DNA from: an uncultured Gemmatimonadales bacterium | GTDB taxonomy: Bacteria > Gemmatimonadota > Gemmatimonadetes > Gemmatimonadales > GWC2-71-9 | Direction: 5' to 3' | Length of the DNA: 64,000 nt | Assembly (NCBI GenBank): GCA_963828735.1 | Contig: CAWHFW010000005.1 | Location: 960,001-1,024,000, forward strand | Notes under the pieces: model-generated | What the model was told of the DNA's origin: nothing | What the model saw: the letters and a program-made list of their open reading frames with translations, nothing else | Databases searched by the model: none | Shown: one piece after another, positions 26,386-40,825 of the stretch | Numbering within the stretch: the stretch's first letter is position 1 | Layout of the letters: each line of letters begins with the position of its first letter | Position numbers and translations under genes: made by a program

Positions 26386-26922
26386 CTACCTGGCCAGCAG
26401 CTGCCTCCGCAGTTTCACCATCCTGCGCCGGACCGAGCCGTCGTGGATGCGCTCGCCGATGCGGACGATGGCGCCGCCCAGCAGCTCCGGGTCCACCGAG
26501 AACGACGGGATGACGTTCTTGCCGAGCTGCTCGCTCAGGGCCTCCGCGATACTGCGTTGGGTGGCCTCATCGGCGGGGCGGGCCAGGGTGACGCCGGCGC
26601 GCACCCGGTCGAGCTTGATGTCGAGGAGCTTGTGGTATTCGGTCGCGATCTCTCGCAGCAGCCCCTGGCGGTTGCGTCGGACGAGCGCCTGGAGGAAGAG
26701 CACGAATTCCCGCCGGACACCCTGAAGCGACGCTGCGAGAAGGCGCGCCTTCTCGGCCTTCGGCACCCGGGGCGACATCAGGACTGCCTGCACCGCTGGT
26801 GTCGTCTCCACCGCGGAGGCCACCGCGTCGATCAGGTCCGCGTACGGGACCGTCTGCCCGCTCCGCTCGCCAAGGTCGAACAGCGTCTCGGCGTAGTTCC
26901 GGGCGATCGTCTCCGACCTCAC
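26386..26922 (-). CDS. atpH: ATP synthase F1 subunit delta
   Basis: IARNYAETL, VDPELLGG, DGSV. Confidence 0.95.
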   Translation of the reverse strand: MRSETIARNYAETLFDLGERSGQTVPYADLIDAVASAVETTPAVQAVLMSPRVPKAEKARLLAASLQGVRREFVLFLQALVRRNRQGLLREIATEYHKLLDIKLDRVRAGVTLARPADEATQRSIAEALSEQLGKNVIPSFSVDPELLGGAIVRIGERIHDGSVRRRMVKLRRQLLAR

Positions 26923-27455
26923 CGCGCCGATTCCAGCGAGGCGAGGTAGTCGCTCACGATCTTCTTGTCGGTCTCGCTGTCGAGCCGCTTGCCGATCAGC
27001 TTCGACGCCGCGGCGAGCGACAGATCCACCGCCTCGCGCCGGAGGTCCGCCACGGCGCGGTCGCGCTCGCTGGTGATCTCACGCCGGGCGCGTTGCAGCA
27101 GATCCTCCTGCTCCTGCTTGGTCTTTTCCATCGCCACCGCCCGCTCCTTCTCCGCGACCTGGCGCGCTTCCACGAGGATCGCGTGGGCCTGCGCCTTGGC
27201 GTCGCCCACGAGCCGCTTGTGCTCCTCCAGCAGCTTGGCCGCCTCGGCCCGGTTCCGCTCGGCCTCCGCGAGCTGCCGCTCGAGCGCCTGCTCCCGCGCC
27301 TCGACCGCGCCGAGTACGGCGGGCCACGCGAACCGCTTGAGGATGGCGAGCAGCAGCAGGAAGACGACGATGGTCCAGAGCATCAGCCCGCCGTCCACGG
27401 TCAACGGACCCGGCGTGTGCTCTTCCTGAAGGGCCAGCAGTGTCACGTGCAGCAT
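26919..27455 (-). CDS. atpF: ATP synthase F0 subunit b
   Basis: WTIVVFLLLL..LKRFAW TM helix plus coiled coil. Confidence 0.95.
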   Translation of the reverse strand: MLHVTLLALQEEHTPGPLTVDGGLMLWTIVVFLLLLAILKRFAWPAVLGAVEAREQALERQLAEAERNRAEAAKLLEEHKRLVGDAKAQAHAILVEARQVAEKERAVAMEKTKQEQEDLLQRARREITSERDRAVADLRREAVDLSLAAASKLIGKRLDSETDKKIVSDYLASLESAR

Positions 27456-27533
27456 GTCGATCTCCGTATCCCCGTGACCTCGCCGCGAACCGGTCCGTCC
27501 CCGACGGACCGGTCCGGCGGCAGGCAGTTCGAG

Positions 27534-27812
27534 CTAGAACGTGATCTTGCCCTGGATCAGGAACGCGATCACGGCGACGAACAGCGCCACGCCTTCGACC
27601 AGCGCCGCGGCGATGATCATGGCCGTCTGGATCCGGGCCGTGGCCTCGGGCTGACGGGCGATGCCCTCGGTAGCGCGGCCGCCGATCTGGCCGATGCCGA
27701 TGCCGGCGCCTACCACGGCCAGGCCGGCCGCGAGACCCGCGCCGATGAGGCCGTAGCCCTTGTCCGCGCCGGCCGCTGCGGCGGCCTGCAACAGGGCGGT
27801 GATGTACAGCAT
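27534..27812 (-). CDS. atpE: ATP synthase F0 subunit c
   Basis: GAGIGIG, ARQPE, ALVEG. Confidence 0.97.
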   Translation of the reverse strand: MLYITALLQAAAAAGADKGYGLIGAGLAAGLAVVGAGIGIGQIGGRATEGIARQPEATARIQTAMIIAAALVEGVALFVAVIAFLIQGKITF

Positions 27813-28019
27813 GTCGTGCTCCCCTTGCGTGAACGGGAGATCGAGAGTCGCTGGCGCGCGCCGTACGTGGATCGCCTCTCCCGGTGCGATCTCGCCACGG
27901 TGACCCGCCTTCGCCCTGGCTTCCGCCGGGCAGCGGGCATCACCCGCCGTTCGGCGGGCTACGGGGTCCGGAGCGGCGCGTGCGCTCGTCGCCCGGACGT
28001 CCTGCGATCCTTCGCCTGC

Positions 28020-28964
28020 CTAGTGCTCCGCCCGCATCAGGCCGATGAACACGCTCGTGAGCAGCGTGAACACGAACGCCTGCAGGAACGCCACGAACAG
28101 CTCGAGCAGCATGACGCCGGTCGCCAGCAGCGAGGCCCCGATCCCCACGGTGTAGCTCTTGAAGAGGAAGGTCAGGCCGATCAGCGCGAGCACCAGCACG
28201 TGTCCCGAGGTCATGTTGGCGAAGAGCCGCACCGCGAGAGCGAACGGCTTGGCCAGCTTGCCGATGAGCTCGATCGGCGTCATCACGGCCAGCAGGAGCA
28301 CCTTGAGCACGCTGCCGCCGATGCCGCCCGGCAGCCCGCTCGGCAGGTAGAAGATGGTCTTCAGGTACCCGGCGGTCCCGAGGGTCCGCATCCCGGTCAC
28401 CTCGATCACGATGAACGCCATCACCGCGAGCGCCGCCGTGACGGCGATGTTGCCGGTCGCGGTGGCACCGCCCGGGAGCAGGCCGAGCAGGTTCATCGCC
28501 AGGATGAAGAAGAACAGGGTCAACAGGTACGGGACGAACCCCTCGCCGTGATGACCCACGTTCGGCAGGATGACCTCCTGCCGGATGTAGAGAGCGGTGG
28601 CCTCCATGGCGCCGGGGAACCCCTTCGCCGGCCGGCCCGCCGCCTCCGCCCGCGCGATGGACCGCGCGCTCAGCACGAACACCAGCGCCACCAGCGTCGC
28701 CGCCAGCAGCATGAACACCAGGTGCTTGGTGGGGGAGAAGTCGAGCGTGAGCCCGCCGATGTGGACCGGGGGGACCCGGGGCAGCTCCACGGTCCCGAGG
28801 AGGGGCAGCTCGATATCGTGCGAGTTCCCGAGGTGATGGGTGATGTCGATCTGCGCAGGGGCGCCCTCGGGCGCGTGCTCCTGCGCCGACGCCGGCCGGG
28901 CGGCCGGCATCGCGAGCCCGAGCAGCATCGCCATCATCACGATCGTACGGACGAATCGCGTCAT
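28020..28964 (-). CDS. atpB: ATP synthase F0 subunit a with N-terminal signal-like extension
   Basis: NLLGLLP, ALAVRLFANM.SGH, LQAFVF.LL. Confidence 0.96.
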   Translation of the reverse strand: MTRFVRTIVMMAMLLGLAMPAARPASAQEHAPEGAPAQIDITHHLGNSHDIELPLLGTVELPRVPPVHIGGLTLDFSPTKHLVFMLLAATLVALVFVLSARSIARAEAAGRPAKGFPGAMEATALYIRQEVILPNVGHHGEGFVPYLLTLFFFILAMNLLGLLPGGATATGNIAVTAALAVMAFIVIEVTGMRTLGTAGYLKTIFYLPSGLPGGIGGSVLKVLLLAVMTPIELIGKLAKPFALAVRLFANMTSGHVLVLALIGLTFLFKSYTVGIGASLLATGVMLLELFVAFLQAFVFTLLTSVFIGLMRAEH

Positions 28965-29329
28965 CACCGATCTTCCCGCGAGTGTTCTCGAAAAGCCGTG
29001 ACCCCCTCGACCGCGAGGAGCGCCACGAGGACTCCCACCATCGCGCCGAGCATCGGCCCGGCACGGCTGCCCATGGCCGGCTGGACGATCAGCCCGGTCA
29101 CGAGAACGGTCGTGAGGCGAGCCAGCATGCCCAGCGTCCACACCGCCATGAACCGGCTGGTCCCGACGCTCTGGATGGCCCACCAGCCGAGCGGCAGCTG
29201 GAGCACTACCCCGACCCCCACCCCCCACCAGTACGCCGCGCGATCGGCCGCGGGTACCAGGCCGGCCAGCGTCGCGGCGGCCACCGCAACCACTCCCACG
29301 CCCGCCAGGTAGCGGCGGCCCAGCGTCAT
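28964..29329 (-). CDS. AtpI-like membrane protein
   Basis: Four TM helices, coupled directly upstream of atpB. Confidence 0.7.
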   Translation of the reverse strand: MTLGRRYLAGVGVVAVAAATLAGLVPAADRAAYWWGVGVGVVLQLPLGWWAIQSVGTSRFMAVWTLGMLARLTTVLVTGLIVQPAMGSRAGPMLGAMVGVLVALLAVEGVTAFREHSREDR

Positions 29330-29562
29330 GCGTCGCCGCCGCCATCCTTGCGGTTGAGCTGACGGATCAGCGAGTACAGGGTGCCGCCGAACCCCAGCAG
29401 CACCGCGGCGATGGTGACGATGCCATTGGCGCCGAGCTTCTTATCGGCCCATTGGCCGACCAGAACGAACACCACCAGACTGACCGCCAGCTGGATCCCC
29501 AATCCGGCGTAGCGCATCGGCCCGGGCTCGTTACCACCGCCATCAGGATCCGGGGCGTTCAC
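29326..29562 (-). CDS. AtpZ/AtpI family protein
   Basis: YAGLGIQLA, GQWADKKLG; first gene of the operon. Confidence 0.85.
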   Translation of the reverse strand: MNAPDPDGGGNEPGPMRYAGLGIQLAVSLVVFVLVGQWADKKLGANGIVTIAAVLLGFGGTLYSLIRQLNRKDGGGDA

Positions 29563-33297: not shown

Positions 33298-34976
33298 TCA
33301 CCCCTCTCCCTTCGGCTCGACCGGAAGCCCAGCCTCCTTCCACGCCACCCATCCCCCGATCAACGCTCTCGCCTTCTTCCATCCCGCTCGACGAAGCTCT
33401 CGCGCCACCCGGGCGCTTGTGGCCTCGTCCTTTCACATGCAGTAGAGGACGAGGGTGGCGTTGGGGTCGAGTCGTCGTTCTCGCGCCAGGCGAACCGCGT
33501 CGTCCGGTGGAAAGCGGAGCGCCCCGACGCCGATGCCCGGCTCGTCGCGGTAGCTCCGCTCGGTGCGGACGTCGAGCACGACGATCGGCTCACCCGAACG
33601 GTGGAGGTCGCGGAACTCCTGGATCGAGATCTTCTCCGGCACCGGCGCGGCGTCGGCCGGGCGCGTGGGCGCCGGTGCCGGGCGCGAGGGCGTCACATGC
33701 GTCTGCGTGTCCGCGAGCGACGGGCGCGTGGCCACCGTGGCCGGGACCTCGGACTCACCCCCGGACGGTGGCGCACCCGTCCCCGCGCCCCCGTGGCGCA
33801 GGAGATAGAGCGCGATCCCGCCGCCGTGGATGACGACCGAGAAGAGCACCACCAGGCAGGTGATGGTGAAGAGCTGCTCGGCCCCGGGCACGCCCGCGAA
33901 CACGGGCAACAGCACCAGCAGCAGCGAGCTCAGCCCGCGCGGCCCGAACGTGGCGATGAGGCGGCGGCTCCGGTCGTCTACACCCGACCGGCGAAGCACC
34001 GGGAGGAGCACCAGGGTACGCATCGAGAGGGCCACTGCCGCGAACACGAGCATGCGCCAGTCGCCCGCGAGGGAGAGGCCAGTCCAGATGAGCCCGGTTC
34101 CAAAGGCGACGAACGCGAACAGCAGGAACATCTCCGCTGACGCCTCGCCGTAGTCGGTGAAGCAGTCGCACAGCTCGACGTCGATCGCCGCGATGACGAG
34201 CCCCGCCGCGAACGCCGCCAGGAACCCGCTGCCGCCCACCGCCTCGGCGGCCGCGTACGCCGTGAACGCGACGCCCAGCGCGTAAAGCGATTCGTAGTCC
34301 CGCCGCACGCCCACCTTCTTGCGGACGGTGTCGAGCAGCGTGATGGCCACCCAGCCGGAGAACACGCCGAGCATCGGGCCGAGGAGGAAGAGGCCGACCG
34401 CGTGCCTTCCGATCTCCCACGCGGGCGCCGCGATCCCGGCCCGAAGCAAGAGCATGCACAGCACCACGATCGGGAGCAGGATCGACGTCGTTCATCCCGC
34501 TCTCGAGCCGGAGCGCGAGCTTGGCCGAGGGCAGCACCGCGGGGTGGCGCATGAGGGTCCGCAGCAGGACCGGATCGGTCGAGGCGAGCGCCGCGCCGAG
34601 GAGGGCCGCGGCGGGCCAGCTCAGGTCGAGCAGCAGCCGCGCGAGCGAGCGTGATGAGCGCCGCGGGGAGGAGGGTTCCGGGCCCGAGGATGAGCGCCGC
34701 GAGTTTCCGCTGTTGGCGCACCTGGCCGATGTCCACGCCGATGGCGTCGGTGAACAGCACCAGCACCAGCGCCAGCGTCGCGATGACCTGGAGCATCGGG
34801 GAATCGAGCGTCAGCTCGACCACGCCGAAGCCGGCCGGGCCGAGCGCCGCGCCGACAAGCAGGAAGATCGCGACGAGCGGCAGCCCGGTCCGCTCCACGG
34901 CGCCCGAGAGCAGGGACGAGATGATGATGACGATCCCGACCAGGGCCAGGAGCGCGGTGAAGCCCTCGTGAGTCAT
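33298..34976 (-). CDS. CPA1 (NhaP-like) cation/H+ antiporter fused to a rhodanese domain; in-frame TGA at 33433-33435 (candidate selenocysteine); two 1-nt frameshifts near 34643 and 34483
   Basis: LVLFTDA, ASTDPV, ESGMND, GPRGL across three frames; VVLDVR..LVLYCM-TGA-KDEATSARVA..GGWVAWKEAGLPVE. Confidence 0.8.
33390..33429 (-). other. Candidate bacterial SECIS element
   Basis: Begins 3 nt after UGA: GACGAGGC/GCUUCGUC lower stem, GCGCC/GGCGC upper stem, CGGGU loop. Confidence 0.6.
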
Positions 34977-35132: not shown

Positions 35133-36035
35133 TCAGGGCAGTCCGATGACGCTGCCCACGCCGGCGTAGGTGTACTGTTCCTTCCAGGTCTTCTTGAATC
35201 TGTAGAACGCCGGCTCCCCAGTGCAGTGGCCCGGTGCTACGCGGTCCACCTTGTAGGTGTCGTGGAGGGCGGTCGCGATGCGCGCGATAACCTCGTCCGG
35301 AGCCGCCGGCAGATGGAATCCGCCAACTACCATGTGCACGTGCCGGTCAATGGCGGTTGACGCCTCCACGATCTTCTCGATTCCCGGATGCGAGCACCCA
35401 ACCACCACGACCATCCCTTGTGGCGTCTCCAGGGCCAGTGACAGTTCGCGCAATTCCTTGGTACCAACCGCGTCGGAGACGAGCGAGATGATGTGCACGC
35501 CAGGGGCCACTTCGAGCGTCGAATCGACCGTCACGAATGTACCCTTGGGCCAGGCCGTACCGAATGCGAGAGTGTCCGCGGGATGGCCGTCGTAATATCG
35601 CATCTCCTCGGGCAGCGAGTCTTGTTTCCGGTAGAACGTGCTTGGCAGCGCGCTGCCGAACACGCCGAATGCCTCCTTGGGCGCGTAGATTTTTACCGTC
35701 GGGTTGACGCTCAACAAATAGGTGAGACCCGCCGTGTGGTCGAGGTGGCGATGCGAGATGACGACGAAGTCCAGCTGCTTGAGGTCAACGCCTGCGGCCT
35801 TGACGTTCTGGGCAAAGATCGACGGGTTGTTGCCGGTGTCGAACAGGATGCGCTTCCCGCCGTGCTCGATGAGGGCGGAATACCCCCAGTCCTTTTTCAT
35901 TGTCGGAGACTTCCCAAACGCGTCGTACAGAATGGTGACGCGATTCACCGGGTCCGCCAGGCGCTCGTGCAAGGTGTACCCGCTAAGCAGCAGCACGAGC
36001 GCAAGCGCTGCCATGGAGCCGTGCCGGTAAGACAT
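35133..36035 (-). CDS. MBL-fold metallo-hydrolase, exported
   Basis: ILFDTG, SHRHLDH, GCSHPG, GGFH, GHCTG. Confidence 0.9.
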   Translation of the reverse strand: MSYRHGSMAALALVLLLSGYTLHERLADPVNRVTILYDAFGKSPTMKKDWGYSALIEHGGKRILFDTGNNPSIFAQNVKAAGVDLKQLDFVVISHRHLDHTAGLTYLLSVNPTVKIYAPKEAFGVFGSALPSTFYRKQDSLPEEMRYYDGHPADTLAFGTAWPKGTFVTVDSTLEVAPGVHIISLVSDAVGTKELRELSLALETPQGMVVVVGCSHPGIEKIVEASTAIDRHVHMVVGGFHLPAAPDEVIARIATALHDTYKVDRVAPGHCTGEPAFYRFKKTWKEQYTYAGVGSVIGLP

Positions 36036-36152
36036 TTTCGCCTCCCGTAGCCGATCTCACACACGCCGGATCCGGGAGGCGGTTGCCCCCTCCCGGGTCC
36101 ACCCGTAGGTTTTGTTTCTACACCTGGCAGCGCCTAGGCGCAGCGAGGCAAC

Positions 36153-36413: not shown

Positions 36414-36590
36414 AATTGCGCGCACCAAAATCCCCACTTTCCAACCTGGATGCTGGTCACGCTTTGGAAGGCCATAGAGGCCCTCCGGCGTAGGTCCAGA
36501 ATCTCAATCCGAACCCCGTGAATCGATTTGGCGTAGCATGTTGAGCCGGTAGGAGATACGGGCTTTCCGAAGGTAACGCGCGGTCAGCTT

Positions 36591-36604
36591 GGGACAAGTA
36601 TACT
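36591..36604 (+). promoter_or_regulatory. Direct repeat copy 2 and leaderless -10 of the K+/H+ antiporter gene
   Basis: TATACT 6 nt before ATG, no RBS. Confidence 0.6.
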
Positions 36605-36610
36605 AGACCC

Positions 36611-38092
36611 ATGTCCACGAGCGAGCCGTTCGGCACCGCCCTGCTGCTGGCCACCGCCGGCGCCTTGATGACCGCGAGCGTCCTGTTCAGCCGGGCGTCA
36701 CAGCGGATCGGGGTGCCGATCGCACTGCTGTTCCTCGTGATCGGCATGCTGGCCGGGTCCGAGGGCATCGGCGGGATCGACTTCGACGATTACCGGTTCG
36801 CCTACCGGCTCGGCTCGGTGGCCCTGGCCCTGATCCTGTTCGACGGCGGCCTCAACACCCCGCTCGCGGCGCTCCGCCGCACTTGGGCGCCGGCCTCGGT
36901 GCTGGCGACGGTGGGCGTCGTGCTCACGGCACTGGCGATCGCGGTGCCGGCCCACGCCTGGGGTCTGGCGTGGCCGCAGGCGCTCGTGCTCGGCGGGGTC
37001 GTGTCCTCCACCGACGCCGCGTCGGTGTTCGCCGTGCTGCGCGGGAGCGGACTCCAGCTCAAGCGGCGGGTGGGCACCACCCTCGAGCTCGAGTCGGGAC
37101 TCAACGATCCGGTCGCCGTCATCCTCACGGTCACCCTCACCGCGAACCTGCTCCATCCCGTCGCGGCCGAGCCGGCGCGCGTCGCGGTCGAGGTCGTGCT
37201 GCAGCTCGTGGTGGGTGCGGCGCTCGGGATGGCGATCGGGCGCGGCGGGCGCGAGCTGCTGCGCCGGAATCCGCTCCCGAGCGGCGGACTCTACCCCGCG
37301 CTCACGCTCGCGCTCGCGCTCCTGGCCTATGGGGTCACGACGCTGCTCCACGGCAGCGGCTTCCTGGCGGTCTACCTCGCCGGCATGATCCTGGGCAACG
37401 CGCCCCTTCCCTATCACGCCGGGCTGCTGCGGGTGCACGATGCGCTCGCGTGGCTGGCGCAGATCGGCATGTTCCTCGTGCTCGGCCTGCTCGTGTTTCC
37501 GAGCGGGCTGCTCGAGGTGGCGGGTACCGGGCTGGGCCTGGCGCTGGTGCTCGCGATCGTGGTGCGGCCCGCGATCGTGGCCCTGTGCCTGGCGCCGTTC
37601 CGCTACCCATGGCGGGAGACGGTGTACATCGGCTGGGTCGGGCTGCGCGGCGCGGTGCCGATCGTGCTCGCCACCTATCCGGTGCTGGTCGGGGCCCCGG
37701 GCGCGGATCGGATCTTCCACGTCGTGTTCTTCATCGTCGTGGTGAACGCCCTGGTGCCGGGCGGCACGGTAGCGTGGGCGACGCGGAGGCTCGGCCTCCA
37801 GACCTCCCAGCCGCCGGCCGCGCAGGCGGTGCTGGCGATCGAGTCGCGCCTGCCGCTCGAGGGCGAGCTCCTGTCGTTCTACATCGACGAAGCGCTGGTG
37901 GTGGCGGGGATCCCGCTCGAGGAGCTGGACTTTCCGGATGGATCCTCGGTCATGCTGATCGTGCGCGGGAATCGGCTGGTGCCGCCCAAGGGCTCGACGA
38001 CGCTCGAGCCGGGGGACCACGTCTACCTGGTCACGCAGCCGGAGGACAAGCCGCTCATGCAGCTCATGTTCGGCCGGCCGGAGGAGGAGTAG
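36611..38092 (+). CDS. cvrA: K+/H+ antiporter NhaP2/CvrA with TrkA-C domain
   Basis: LFDGG, STDAA.VF, ESGLNDP, GLRGAVPI. Confidence 0.92.
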   Translation: MSTSEPFGTALLLATAGALMTASVLFSRASQRIGVPIALLFLVIGMLAGSEGIGGIDFDDYRFAYRLGSVALALILFDGGLNTPLAALRRTWAPASVLATVGVVLTALAIAVPAHAWGLAWPQALVLGGVVSSTDAASVFAVLRGSGLQLKRRVGTTLELESGLNDPVAVILTVTLTANLLHPVAAEPARVAVEVVLQLVVGAALGMAIGRGGRELLRRNPLPSGGLYPALTLALALLAYGVTTLLHGSGFLAVYLAGMILGNAPLPYHAGLLRVHDALAWLAQIGMFLVLGLLVFPSGLLEVAGTGLGLALVLAIVVRPAIVALCLAPFRYPWRETVYIGWVGLRGAVPIVLATYPVLVGAPGADRIFHVVFFIVVVNALVPGGTVAWATRRLGLQTSQPPAAQAVLAIESRLPLEGELLSFYIDEALVVAGIPLEELDFPDGSSVMLIVRGNRLVPPKGSTTLEPGDHVYLVTQPEDKPLMQLMFGRPEEE

Positions 38093-38214
38093 CGGGCTGG
38101 ACCGGAGCGAGGCCTGTGCCTCCCGTCACGGCCCGACGACCGTCCCTCGCGCTATTGCAGTGACGTCCCCCGGCCGGCGTCCGCCGCGCCGGGGGCATCA
38201 CGGGCGAGGTACCC

Positions 38215-38742
38215 ATGTCCATCGACTGGCACGAGCTGCTGGTCCCGTCCGTCAGCCTTGCGGAGCTCGTGCTCCGCGGCTCGGCGATGTACCTCTTCAT
38301 CCTCGCCGCGATGCGGCTGTTCCGCCGCGAGGCCGGCGCGCTCGGCACGGCCGATCTCCTCGTCATCGTGCTCGTGGCGGACGCCGCACAGAACGCGATG
38401 GCCGCCGAGTACCACTCGCTCACCGAGGGCGTGGTGCTGGTGGCAACGATCTACGGGTGGAACTACCTGCTCGACTGGCTGGCGTTCCGCTCGCCCGCGG
38501 TCTACCGGCTGCTCAACCAGGCGCCGCTGCCGCTCGTCCGGGACGGGCGGGTCCTCCGGAAGAACATGCGCTCGGAGATGCTCACGCTCGAGGACCTGAT
38601 GGAGCAGCTCCGCGAGCAGGGCGTGGAGCGGGTGGCCGACGTGAAGCGCTGCTTTCTCGAGTCCGACGGGCGGCTGAGCATCATCCGGCGGAAGGACGAC
38701 GACGGCGACCGGCCGCCCGACCGGGAGCGCGCCACCACCTGA
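38215..38742 (+). CDS. DUF421/YetF family membrane protein
   Basis: Three TM helices; LVRDG, LREQG, LESDGRLS. Confidence 0.9.
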   Translation: MSIDWHELLVPSVSLAELVLRGSAMYLFILAAMRLFRREAGALGTADLLVIVLVADAAQNAMAAEYHSLTEGVVLVATIYGWNYLLDWLAFRSPAVYRLLNQAPLPLVRDGRVLRKNMRSEMLTLEDLMEQLREQGVERVADVKRCFLESDGRLSIIRRKDDDGDRPPDRERATT

Positions 38743-38848
38743 GCGGCGCTTGCGGGGCCTCCGGCCCGCCCGCCGGACTGGTTCAGACGCCCGGACGATG
38801 CTAAAGTTTCTACTCCCTCCACCTCCTCATTCGGGTATGCTCGTGGGC

Positions 38849-40825
38849 ATGCTGCGATCCGACCGCTCAAGCGGACTCGCTCGACGCTTCCTCGCGACCG
38901 CGGCACTTTCGCCCGGCCGCGCGGCGCTCGGCCTTGTCCTGGCCACGCTCCTCGCGTGCGGTGGCGACAGCCTGACCGTGCCCGACCAGGGCACGCCCTC
39001 GGCGATCGCCATGGTGCGGGGCGACCGGCAGGACGGCGCGGCCGGCGAGCCGCTGGGCGATTCACTCGTGGTGCGGGTGACGGACCGCTTCGGCGACCCG
39101 GTCGGCGGCGTCGAGGTGGCCTGGACCCCGCAGTCGGGCGGGAGCGTGAGCCCGGCCACGAGCGCCACCTCCGCCGACGGCCGCGCCGCCACCCAGCGCA
39201 TGCTCGGCGAGGCGCTCGGCCCCTACGTCACTACCGCCGCCCTGCCCGCCTCCCAGAGCACGCCCCAGCCGGTGGTGTTCACCGCCACGGGCGTGGACAC
39301 GCGCCTCGTGCTCGCCGTGCCGCTGCCGGCGGTCGTGGCGGCCGGGGTCGTGCTCGACCCCCAGCCGGTGATCCAGCTCCGGGACCTCGAGGGCCACGAC
39401 GTGGCGCAGCAGGGGGTGACGGTCACCGCTCGGCTCGCCGACGGCGGCACGGTGTCCGGCGGTGCCACCGCCGCGAGCGACGCGACGGGCCGGGCGACGT
39501 TCGCCGACCTCGCGATCACCGGCTCGAACGGGAGCCACACCCTCATCTTCACCGCCGACGGCTTCGCCTCGGCCACGGCGACGGTGGCCCTCGGCATCGC
39601 GGCGCCGGGCTCGATGGAGGCCGCCGCGGGCGGCGACCAGTCGACGACGGTGGCGACGGCCGTGGCCGTGGCGCCCGCGGTGCTGGTGCGCGACCAGCAG
39701 GGCAATCCGCTCGCGGGCATTCCGGTGACGTTCGCGGTGACCGGCGGCGGCGGGTCGGTGAGCAAGGCCGTGCCGGTGACGGGCGCCGACGGCGTCGCGA
39801 CCCTGGGCGGGTGGACGCTCGGCCCGCAGGCCGGCGCCAACACGGTCGCGGCGACGATCTCGGGGCTCGAGGTGAGCGGCAGCCCGGTGACGTTCCAGGC
39901 CACCGGCATGCCGGCGGCGGTGGACGCCGCGAAGAGCAGCGTCAGTGCGGCGCCAACGGCCGTCTCCGCGTCGGGCGGGTCGAGCCCGAGCACGATCACG
40001 GTGACCGCGCGCGACGCGCTCGACAACCCGATCCCGGGGCTCGCGGTCACGCTCGCCGCGACCGGCGACGGCGCCGCGCTGACGCAGCCGGACGCGCCCA
40101 CCGGAAGCGACGGCACCGCCACCGGCGCCTTCAGCGCGACCACGCCGGGCGAGCATGTCGTCTCGGCGACGATCGCGGGCGTGCCGGTGACCCAGACCGC
40201 CACGGTGATGGTGTCCGCCGGCGCGCCGAGCGCGGGGCGGAGCCGCGCCACGGTGCCGGCGGGTACCGCGGGCGAGGGCACGACGATCGAGGTCCGGCTC
40301 AAGGACGGGCAGGGCAACGACGTGGCGGGGCAGGCCGGGGCGATCGCGGTGACGGTCTCGGGTGCCAACCCGGCGGGCGCGCTGGACGTGGCGGAGGACG
40401 GCGGCGGCCGCTACACGGCCACGTACACCCCGACCGTGACCGGGACCGACCATGTGGACGTGAAGGTGGCGGGCACCGCGGTCCAGGGCTCGCCGTTCTT
40501 GAGCGCGGTGGAGGCGGGGGCGGCGAACGCGGGCACGTCCATAGCGGTGGTGCCGGCCTGCGTCGAGCAGTTCCGGCTCCCCGCGCGGATCACCATCACG
40601 GCGTTCGACGCGTTCGGCAACCGGCTCAAGCGGGGCGGCGATGCATACCGGATCCAGGTGAACCAGGGTCCCCTGACCACGCCGGAGGACCAGAAGGACG
40701 GCACCTACACGGCGGCGCTCAACCTGCCGATTGGGGTGTTCCGGGTGGACATCACGCTCCAGGGCGCGGCGATCCAGGGGAATCCGTTCCAGATCATCGT
40801 GCCGTACCCGTTCTTCAACTGCTAG
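38849..40825 (+). CDS. Lipoprotein with tandem Ig-like (Big/invasin, filamin-like) domains
   Basis: LLAC lipobox; repeated V.V.D..GNP..G..V.F; G.YTA.Y, GSPF. Confidence 0.85.
   Translation: MLRSDRSSGLARRFLATAALSPGRAALGLVLATLLACGGDSLTVPDQGTPSAIAMVRGDRQDGAAGEPLGDSLVVRVTDRFGDPVGGVEVAWTPQSGGSVSPATSATSADGRAATQRMLGEALGPYVTTAALPASQSTPQPVVFTATGVDTRLVLAVPLPAVVAAGVVLDPQPVIQLRDLEGHDVAQQGVTVTARLADGGTVSGGATAASDATGRATFADLAITGSNGSHTLIFTADGFASATATVALGIAAPGSMEAAAGGDQSTTVATAVAVAPAVLVRDQQGNPLAGIPVTFAVTGGGGSVSKAVPVTGADGVATLGGWTLGPQAGANTVAATISGLEVSGSPVTFQATGMPAAVDAAKSSVSAAPTAVSASGGSSPSTITVTARDALDNPIPGLAVTLAATGDGAALTQPDAPTGSDGTATGAFSATTPGEHVVSATIAGVPVTQTATVMVSAGAPSAGRSRATVPAGTAGEGTTIEVRLKDGQGNDVAGQAGAIAVTVSGANPAGALDVAEDGGGRYTATYTPTVTGTDHVDVKVAGTAVQGSPFLSAVEAGAANAGTSIAVVPACVEQFRLPARITITAFDAFGNRLKRGGDAYRIQVNQGPLTTPEDQKDGTYTAALNLPIGVFRVDITLQGAAIQGNPFQIIVPYPFFNC

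Follow-up and report, generated by a model that had tools for sequence, protein, structure and literature searches.

In a 64,000-nucleotide stretch of DNA from an uncultured Gemmatimonadales bacterium (GenBank assembly GCA_963828735.1, contig CAWHFW010000005.1, positions 960,001 to 1,024,000 of the forward strand; hereafter the window), we found a minus-strand gene for a CPA1-type cation/proton antiporter whose apparent end, a UGA codon, falls inside a rhodanese domain. Comparison of sequences leads us to propose, with a probability of roughly 0.85, that this UGA is a selenocysteine (Sec) codon in a single antiporter-linker-rhodanese polypeptide of about 558 residues, decoded by SelB and tRNA-Sec via a small selenocysteine insertion sequence (SECIS) hairpin and giving rise to a C-x-U active site.

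A conserved frame on both sides of a UGA codon

The gene begins with an ATG at 34976 on the minus strand, and its open reading frame (ORF), as called with translation table 11, ends at ...LVLYCM before the TGA at 33433-33435. Beyond this TGA the frame stays open for another 44 codons (KDEATS...PKGEG), and a second TGA, at 33298-33300, closes it. An initial annotation, made from the sequence alone, had described this stop and this continuation, and had taken the downstream frame for the missing second half of a rhodanese. Both observations hold: the Pfam Rhodanese profile (PF00581) matches with 36.2 bits against a gathering threshold of 22.2, and since the match occupies residues 283-379 of the read-through translation (P0001), it spans the TGA, with parts of the domain on either side. 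The size and layout put forward at the same time, a protein of about 558 amino acids made up of a CPA1 antiporter, a linker and a C-x-U rhodanese domain, were also borne out. The length follows from an intact, 99% identical homologue (P0003), whose 513 amino acids up to the TGA would be extended by the Sec residue (U) and 44 others, and the domains follow from Pfam, with Na_H_Exchanger (PF00999) matching the first 111 residues at 34.8 bits and the last part at 64.7 bits.

We found the UGA itself to be strictly conserved among close relatives. The 120 best homologues in the database share 64-99% identity, and most of them carry a Gemmatimonadales or soil-metagenome label. Of these, 118 terminate precisely where the UGA stands, with the ending ...YC[A/T/M], and the remaining two are frameshifted or aberrant. 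The gene is carried by 22 of the 201 genomes in a sample of the order, namely by 14 of the 15 other genomes of the window's genus, by three further genera of its family and by four genomes of a second family. The codon is TGA in all 23 genome loci, which comprise these 22 and one further GTDB genome (one of the 23 sequences comes from an unpublished genome, and the count without it is 22/22). A scan based on the family alignment fetched 80 metagenome loci, nine of which are cut by contig ends before the codon; the other 71 all have TGA as well. This gives TGA in 94 of the 94 relatives whose DNA reaches the codon, a count that describes the Sec clade and not all homologues, because the queries came from the TGA clade. 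Around the codon the relatives read LYCAU, LYCTU, VYCAU or AYCAU, and the window copy LYCMU.

The sequence behind the codon is conserved as well. In the genome loci it follows the pattern U-x-[DN]-E-A-T-S-[AT]-R-V-[AV]...G-G-W..W...G-[LM]-P, and 42 codons 3' of the TGA are conserved in frame; codons +14 to +42 keep their amino acids, with G, W and GGW, for example, found in 23/23. In these 23 genome sequences, the entropy at third codon positions is 1.31 bits for codons +14 to +42, close to the 1.26 bits of the 62 codons that precede the TGA, and falls to 0.50 bits for codons +1 to +13 and to 0.33 bits for codons +3 to +12. Judging from these patterns, the downstream frame is under protein-level selection, and RNA-level selection acts directly behind the TGA. 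A total of 533 metagenome stretches encode relatives of the gene.

Cys is the usual counterpart of Sec in homologues of selenoproteins. An exhaustive HMMER search of cluster representatives returned 3524 matches, the best 150 of which were inspected. The ending x-C-[A/T] was seen in at least 58 of these, and seven read through with a Cys at the Sec position, in contexts such as FCACPNEETS, YCACPAEETS, YCTCPNEETS and TCTCPAEESS. Both Cys columns are invariant in an alignment of 70 sequences (A4). Two of the seven Cys forms are full-length antiporter-rhodanese fusions, one of 540 amino acids from Thermomicrobiales or a soil metagenome (P0164) and one of 534 amino acids from a Nitriliruptor metagenome-assembled genome (P0201), and the fusion therefore exists as a Cys version in other phyla. 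They share the architecture of the window's gene and carry C-x-C-P-x-E-x-[ST] at the same place, but they have Cys for Sec, are 38-39% identical, belong to other phyla and are likewise uncharacterised. As to whether homologues have TGA or Cys at this codon, a check put forward in the initial annotation, both occur: TGA throughout the clade (94/94) and Cys in more distant homologues. By all appearances, C-x-C in the homologues and C-x-U here are a classical Cys/Sec pair.

A covarying hairpin and the machinery for selenocysteine

Directly downstream of the UGA we found a small hairpin whose core is conserved across the family, RNAalifold and a separate count of pairs being in agreement. It consists of a 3-bp stem (33424-33422 paired with 33397-33395), an internal loop (CACAA/GAGA), a 5-bp upper stem (33416-33412 paired with 33406-33402) and an apical loop at 33411-33407 that reads CGGGU in the window and CG[G/U]GU in the family. 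The 5-bp stem is paired in every cell of the alignment (86 of 86 distinct sequences, 92 in total). Its middle pair is G-C in 70 of these, A-U in 14 and G-U in 2, and the A-U form comes with two simultaneous amino-acid changes (A to T and A to V). The covariation score and the number of double changes were reached by none of 500 shuffles, and controls with slid partners paired in 14-45% of cells against the 89.5% observed. Columns 30 and 48 of the alignment, both of them synonymous sites, are occupied by A·A in the majority of sequences and by G-C in 16; this pairing was spotted after the data had been seen and is only a lead.

The core begins 9 nt after the UGA, and its apical loop lies 21 nt downstream. 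The model of bacterial SECIS elements (bSECIS), as given in the accessible portion of a 2026 review, sets the loop at 3-9 nt, the upper stem at 4-16 bp and the spacing between UGA and loop at 16-37 nt, and places a G in the first two loop positions that is usually followed by G or U; a fourth constraint concerns free energy (PMC13188914). In the comparison, which covered three of these four constraints, the hairpin agrees with each (5 nt loop and 5 bp stem, C-G-[G/U], 21 nt). A two-stem hairpin starting 3 nt after the UGA had been noted initially; it is present in the window copy, where the extended form folds at -25.2 kcal/mol, and its core is the conserved and covarying element described above. 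Its 8-bp lower stem, considered as a further conserved feature, was rejected, only 69% of cells being paired (23 sequences). Rfam at its gathering thresholds gave no match within the window, and no hairpin follows the true stop at 33298-33300.

The genome encodes the machinery that such decoding would require: the searches for selA, selB, selC and selD suggested in the initial annotation found all four. SelA matches with 274 bits, SelB with 256 bits (cut-off 242) and SelD with 371 bits, and the tRNA-Sec gene selC is recognised by Rfam (65 bits) and by ARAGORN, which reads its anticodon as TCA. Every one of the 22 genomes carrying the gene has SelA, compared with 155 of the 201 in the order sample, the carrier genomes being kin and not independent. 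No internal stops were seen in rpoB, rpoC, gyrA, SelA or SelD, and TGA is for this reason not a general sense codon here. A second tRNA-Sec-like match lies about 10 kb from SelA (contig 2 of the genome, 315941-316026, plus strand; 47.3 bits against a gathering threshold of 47) and may be another long-arm tRNA.

Two other explanations of the codon have to be weighed against these results. Were the TGA a genuine stop, or the result of a nonsense mutation, translation would finish at LYCM halfway through the rhodanese domain, and the 44 codons behind the TGA would be a non-coding remnant. This is where the public gene calls end (118 of the 120 examined), but a remnant would not hold its amino acids while its synonymous sites vary, nor would it stay open in a single frame throughout 94 sequences whose identity goes as low as 50%. 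Nor would half of a rhodanese fold have been retained, and the AlphaFold model of the read-through tail is a single rhodanese domain with a mean predicted local distance difference test (pLDDT) score of 94.9; we regard a true stop as extremely improbable. The UGA could also be read through without Sec, the hairpin aiding insertion of Trp, Cys or another near-cognate residue, or termination could simply be leaky, and a conserved UGA, downstream frame and hairpin would be expected equally in that case. Against such read-through stand the agreement with the three comparable bSECIS constraints (spacing and the G[G/U] motif of the loop among them), the Cys at this exact position in homologues, SelA in 22/22 carrier genomes and a complete machinery in the window's genome, and the fact that the nearest catalogued family is a selenoprotein with an LYCAU motif. 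We consider it very unlikely, and Sec insertion remains our reading of the codon.

A rhodanese tail on an ion antiporter

In the model of the tail, strand 66-70 ends at Y70 and is followed by C71-M72-U73-K-D-E, with a helix from A77 onwards. Foldseek assigned a probability of 1.00 to several rhodaneses and matched the model to Alr3790, 6mxv, TSTD1 and GlpE with template modelling (TM) scores of 0.70-0.76. The best structural match, Alr3790 of Anabaena (PDB 2kl3, 3ilm and 3k9r; TM 0.76), has a similar acidic loop (A-G-D-E-Q-T-S compared with U-K-D-E-A-T-S), but neither Cys nor Sec occurs in it, and the protein is a structural-genomics target of unknown function.

The best NCBIfam match of the tail is NF041203 (rhodanese_LYCAU, named a 'rhodanese-related (seleno)protein'; 79 bits, E = 2e-22, and 74.9 bits in the search of the genome). 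In the accessible portions of two sources, this family is described as a stand-alone 'form 3' rhodanese-like domain-containing selenoprotein with a CxU motif (PMC13188914), and is given as 'COG0607 form 2, CxU' in a 2022 review (PMC9312934). The tail resembles it in its rhodanese fold and in a Sec placed two residues after a Cys (LYCAU or LYCTU in relatives, LYCMU here), but NF041203 is a small stand-alone protein, whereas here the domain forms the C-terminal tail of a membrane antiporter of about 400 residues. We found no paper on an antiporter-rhodanese selenoprotein fusion by titles and the beginnings of abstracts, and supplementary tables of selenoproteome papers could list it; the words 'antiporter', 'exchanger' and 'Gemmatimon' are absent from the accessible text of both sources (PMC13188914, PMC9312934). 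The statement in the initial annotation that the fusion was not recognised as characterised stands to this extent, with the amendment that its rhodanese part is related to a catalogued family. As far as the sequences tell, the C-x-U rhodanese selenoprotein domain is known and catalogued, and what is new is the architecture, in which it is the tail of an ion antiporter.

Several observations weigh against the proposal or parts of it. The relatives were gathered with Sec-clade queries. The window's hairpin is unremarkable as a single fold (z = -1.25; 24 of 200 shuffles fold as well). As the sequence is G+C-rich and shuffled versions fold equally well, the significance of the hairpin comes from the relatives and not from the single fold; of the folding check suggested at the outset, the part on the single sequence did no better than shuffles, and conservation and covariation among relatives supplied the support. 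The NF041203 match covers profile positions 35-126 of 126 only, and its 79 bits lie below the cut-off of 115. The sequence alignments differ as to which residue takes the catalytic position: the gapless alignment to domain 1 of 6mxv sets the Sec on the catalytic Cys, whereas those to domain 2 of 6mxv and to YnjE set the preceding Cys there, with a gap of two residues, and in the model it is the Cys that comes directly after the strand. In either alignment, Cys and Sec are both found in the active-site cradle, two positions apart. The loop U-K-D-E-A-T-S is acidic and lacks the arginine usual in sulfurtransferases, whose basic loop is of the C-R-x-G-x-R type, and classical thiosulfate sulfurtransferase activity is therefore doubtful. 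Lastly, a regulatory role of the tail is something we purely infer.

The membrane part is homologous to PaNhaP (4cz8 and 4cza; E = 4e-8, residues 16-379). In a family alignment of 35 sequences (A2), T133, E158, G160, N162 and R346 show no variation and D134, S159 and D163 almost none, within the family patterns S-T-D-P, E-S-G-M-N-D and F-G-P-R-G. Their counterparts in MjNhaP1, according to the accessible part of its description, are T131/D132, E156, S157, N160/D161 and R320 (PMC4381896). Because these ion-site motifs match, the transport machinery seems intact and of the electroneutral CPA1 type, and the antiporter looks functional. According to the same text, GFP and PhoA assays place the C-terminus of MjNhaP1 in the cytoplasm, and activity at pH 8 is impaired by a C-terminal tag on helix 13, which belongs to the moving six-helix bundle (PMC4381896). 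By homology to MjNhaP1 we place the rhodanese tail in the cytoplasm, where it would be tethered to a helix whose mobility matters. PaNhaP and MjNhaP1 thus resemble the Sec family in the Pfam Na_H_Exchanger domain, in the T-D, E-S-x-x-N-D and Arg motifs and, by homology, in 13 helices and a cytoplasmic C-terminus; the archaeal proteins, however, stop after helix 13, whereas the Sec family adds a linker of about 60 residues and the Sec rhodanese.

The copy in the window, its neighbours and a possible role

As assembled, the copy in the window needs three frames (34976 to ~34647, ~34645 to 34483 and ~34481 to 33298; Table 1). We think it probable that the two frame changes are single-base insertion errors of the assembly, because relatives lack the extra bases and similar insertions occur in rpoB and SelA. 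In a MAFFT alignment, both extra bases are absent from six of six metagenome relatives. Short-read contigs from three studies (X1, X5 and X6) omit one base at 34646, and two of them (X5 and X6) omit one base at 34482 or 34484; these contigs come from related strains, mostly 90-99% alike, and none spans the whole stretch. Mapping of reads over the frameshifts, as had been advised, was in this way answered in part: contigs of related strains do not carry the extra bases, and they are not demonstrably of this strain. The essential rpoB of the same assembly has one extra base relative to two congeners (contig 2 of the genome, about 623100-623400), and SelA has three, again relative to two congeners, and falls into three frames (contig 2, 305020-306107); SelA is a single frame in nearly all other genomes of the order sample.

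The family might instead be a real selenoprotein of which this copy is a recently inactivated pseudogene, with real insertions at ~34646 and ~34482. That the gene needs three frames is in keeping with this, and so is the state of the surroundings, which counts against assembly error: rpoC, the gyrA gene on the window's contig and SelD are intact, and 21 other ORFs of the window have full-length Pfam coverage, so that indel errors are not dense here and local frame errors are infrequent. On the other hand, single-base insertions in rpoB (one) and SelA (three) show up in the very same assembly, the extra bases are missing from all six relatives and from the related-strain contigs of three studies, and the gene has no lesion besides them, its segments being 98%, about 83% and 96-99% identical to P0003. 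We therefore hold a pseudogene to be unlikely and insertion errors the better account; the family-level conclusion is unaffected by the status of this copy.

Further observations concern the assembly and the gene. CTCG- or CGATC-like contexts surround several of the insertions, a pattern that seems systematic, and a second gyrA/parC-like gene (contig 1, 215795-218229) is in six pieces with two in-frame TGA codons. The public gene calls P0096 and P0151 are frame-broken in the linker or the rhodanese part, and indel-affected copies are for that reason not unique to this assembly. In the tract at 34483-34643, about 9 of 53 residues differ from those of P0003; the P0003-type letters recur there in contigs of three studies, and the window's version is nearer to the family consensus. 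It may be a strain-variable tract, its edges coinciding with the extra bases. A metatranscriptome run (X15) contributed two short contigs that map to the gene; they may stem from carried-over DNA and were not counted as evidence of expression.

Table 1. Features of the antiporter-rhodanese gene and its putative SECIS hairpin (positions in the window)
Feature	Position	Strand	Basis
Whole gene: CPA1 antiporter, linker and putative Sec rhodanese domain	33298..34976	-	Frames, Pfam, alignment to P0003
Segment 1: about the first 110 antiporter residues	34647..34976	-	108/110 identical to P0003; Pfam Na_H_Exchanger profile positions 2-91
First frame change: a single surplus base	34644..34648	-	1-base gap in 6/6 relatives; contigs X1, X5, X6
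Segment 2: ion-site motifs STDP (unwound helix) and ESGMND (ND motif)	34483..34643	-	Frame shifted by one base relative to segment 1
Second frame change: a single surplus base immediately behind the ND motif	34480..34485	-	6/6 relatives; contigs X5, X6
Segment 3, membrane part: remaining transmembrane helices, including the FGPRG arginine	33800..34479	-	Pfam Na_H_Exchanger profile positions 163-373 of 375
Pro/Ala/Thr-rich linker, variable in length and sequence	33637..33799	-	Alignment A2 mostly without a majority residue there
Rhodanese domain across the UGA	33331..33621	-	Pfam PF00581, AlphaFold model, Foldseek
UGA, putatively read as Sec; motif L-Y-C-M-U (C-x-U)	33433..33435	-	TGA in relatives, Cys in homologues
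Conserved core of the putative SECIS: 3-bp stem, internal loop, 5-bp stem, apical loop	33395..33424	-	86 distinct sequences
Extended hairpin of the window copy: 8-bp lower stem around the core	33390..33429	-	Single-sequence fold
True stop codon TGA	33298..33300	-	Relatives end within a few codons with TGA, TAG or TAA

A second CPA1 antiporter, this one with a TrkA_C tail, is encoded nearby on the plus strand (36545-38089). A homologue of this paralogue (57-87% identity) adjoins the Sec gene in 49 of 102 related loci (among them L022, L025-L027, L030-L033, L037-L039 and L068-L074), the usual arrangement being head to head at a distance of up to about 100 bases, with a few loci tail to tail; in many of the others, the sequence on the paralogue side does not extend far enough for a decision. 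This arrangement suggests that the Sec antiporter and the TrkA_C paralogue are a functional pair. Between the two antiporter genes in the window lies a gene for a metallo-beta-lactamase (MBL)-fold hydrolase with a signal-like N-terminus (35136-36056, minus strand). It was considered as a possible persulfide-dioxygenase partner and dropped, having a counterpart in none of the 102 related loci, and is for the same reason taken to be a lineage-specific insertion. Elsewhere in the window, a row of F-type ATP synthase genes (subunits a, c, b and delta) occupies 26389-29366 on the minus strand, with full-length Pfam matches. On the plus strand, a YetF/DUF421 match at 38164-38739 covers profile positions 4-71 of 129 only, and the gene may be truncated or frame-broken; after it, 38678-40822 encodes a protein of 715 amino acids with repeats of the Big_1, invasin D3 and filamin types.

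If the proposal is correct, the gene would give one polypeptide of about 558 residues, in which an electroneutral CPA1 Na+ or K+/H+ antiporter is joined by a flexible linker to a probably cytoplasmic single-domain rhodanese. The UGA at 33433-33435 would be decoded by SelB and tRNA-Sec under the direction of the SECIS hairpin, and the Cys-x-Sec motif of the active site would result from this decoding. The C-x-U pair could then form a reversible selenenylsulfide or accept sulfane sulfur, and the state of the tail, tethered as it would be to the last helix of the moving six-helix bundle, would tune antiport under oxidants or reactive sulfur species. Since the loop is acidic and without the arginine typical of thiosulfate sulfurtransferases, we tentatively favour redox or sulfane-sulfur sensing over bulk sulfur transfer, the state of the C-x-U pair perhaps altering the constraint that the tail places on the transporter. 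A selenium-dependent redox or persulfide switch on the antiporter, which would couple pH and K+/Na+ homeostasis to oxidative and reactive-sulfur stress, is at present a speculative possibility. Such a switch would take the C-x-U pair back and forth through several states (selenol and thiol; selenenylsulfide; perselenide or persulfide), and would thereby lock or release the moving helix bundle. Because the UGA lies in the tail, it would also depend on the supply of selenium whether the regulated, full-length protein is made or a shortened form that escapes regulation. The TrkA_C-tailed NhaP paralogue may be a partner, through a heterodimer or through division of labour.

Most selenoproteins, whether known or predicted, are redox enzymes of the soluble kind. 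In its accessible portion, the 2026 review names only a handful of transporter-associated candidates and no cation/proton antiporter (PMC13188914). With 118 of the 120 public gene calls stopping at the UGA, the annotation error is systematic, and with single-base insertions in essential genes of this assembly, its apparent pseudogenes need cautious reading. The family is common in soil Gemmatimonadales, as its presence in 14 of 15 genus genomes and in the 533 metagenome stretches indicates. If the proposal is true, Sec would sit in the regulatory tail of a secondary ion transporter, and the family would offer a testable lead on a possible control of ion homeostasis by redox or sulfur state.

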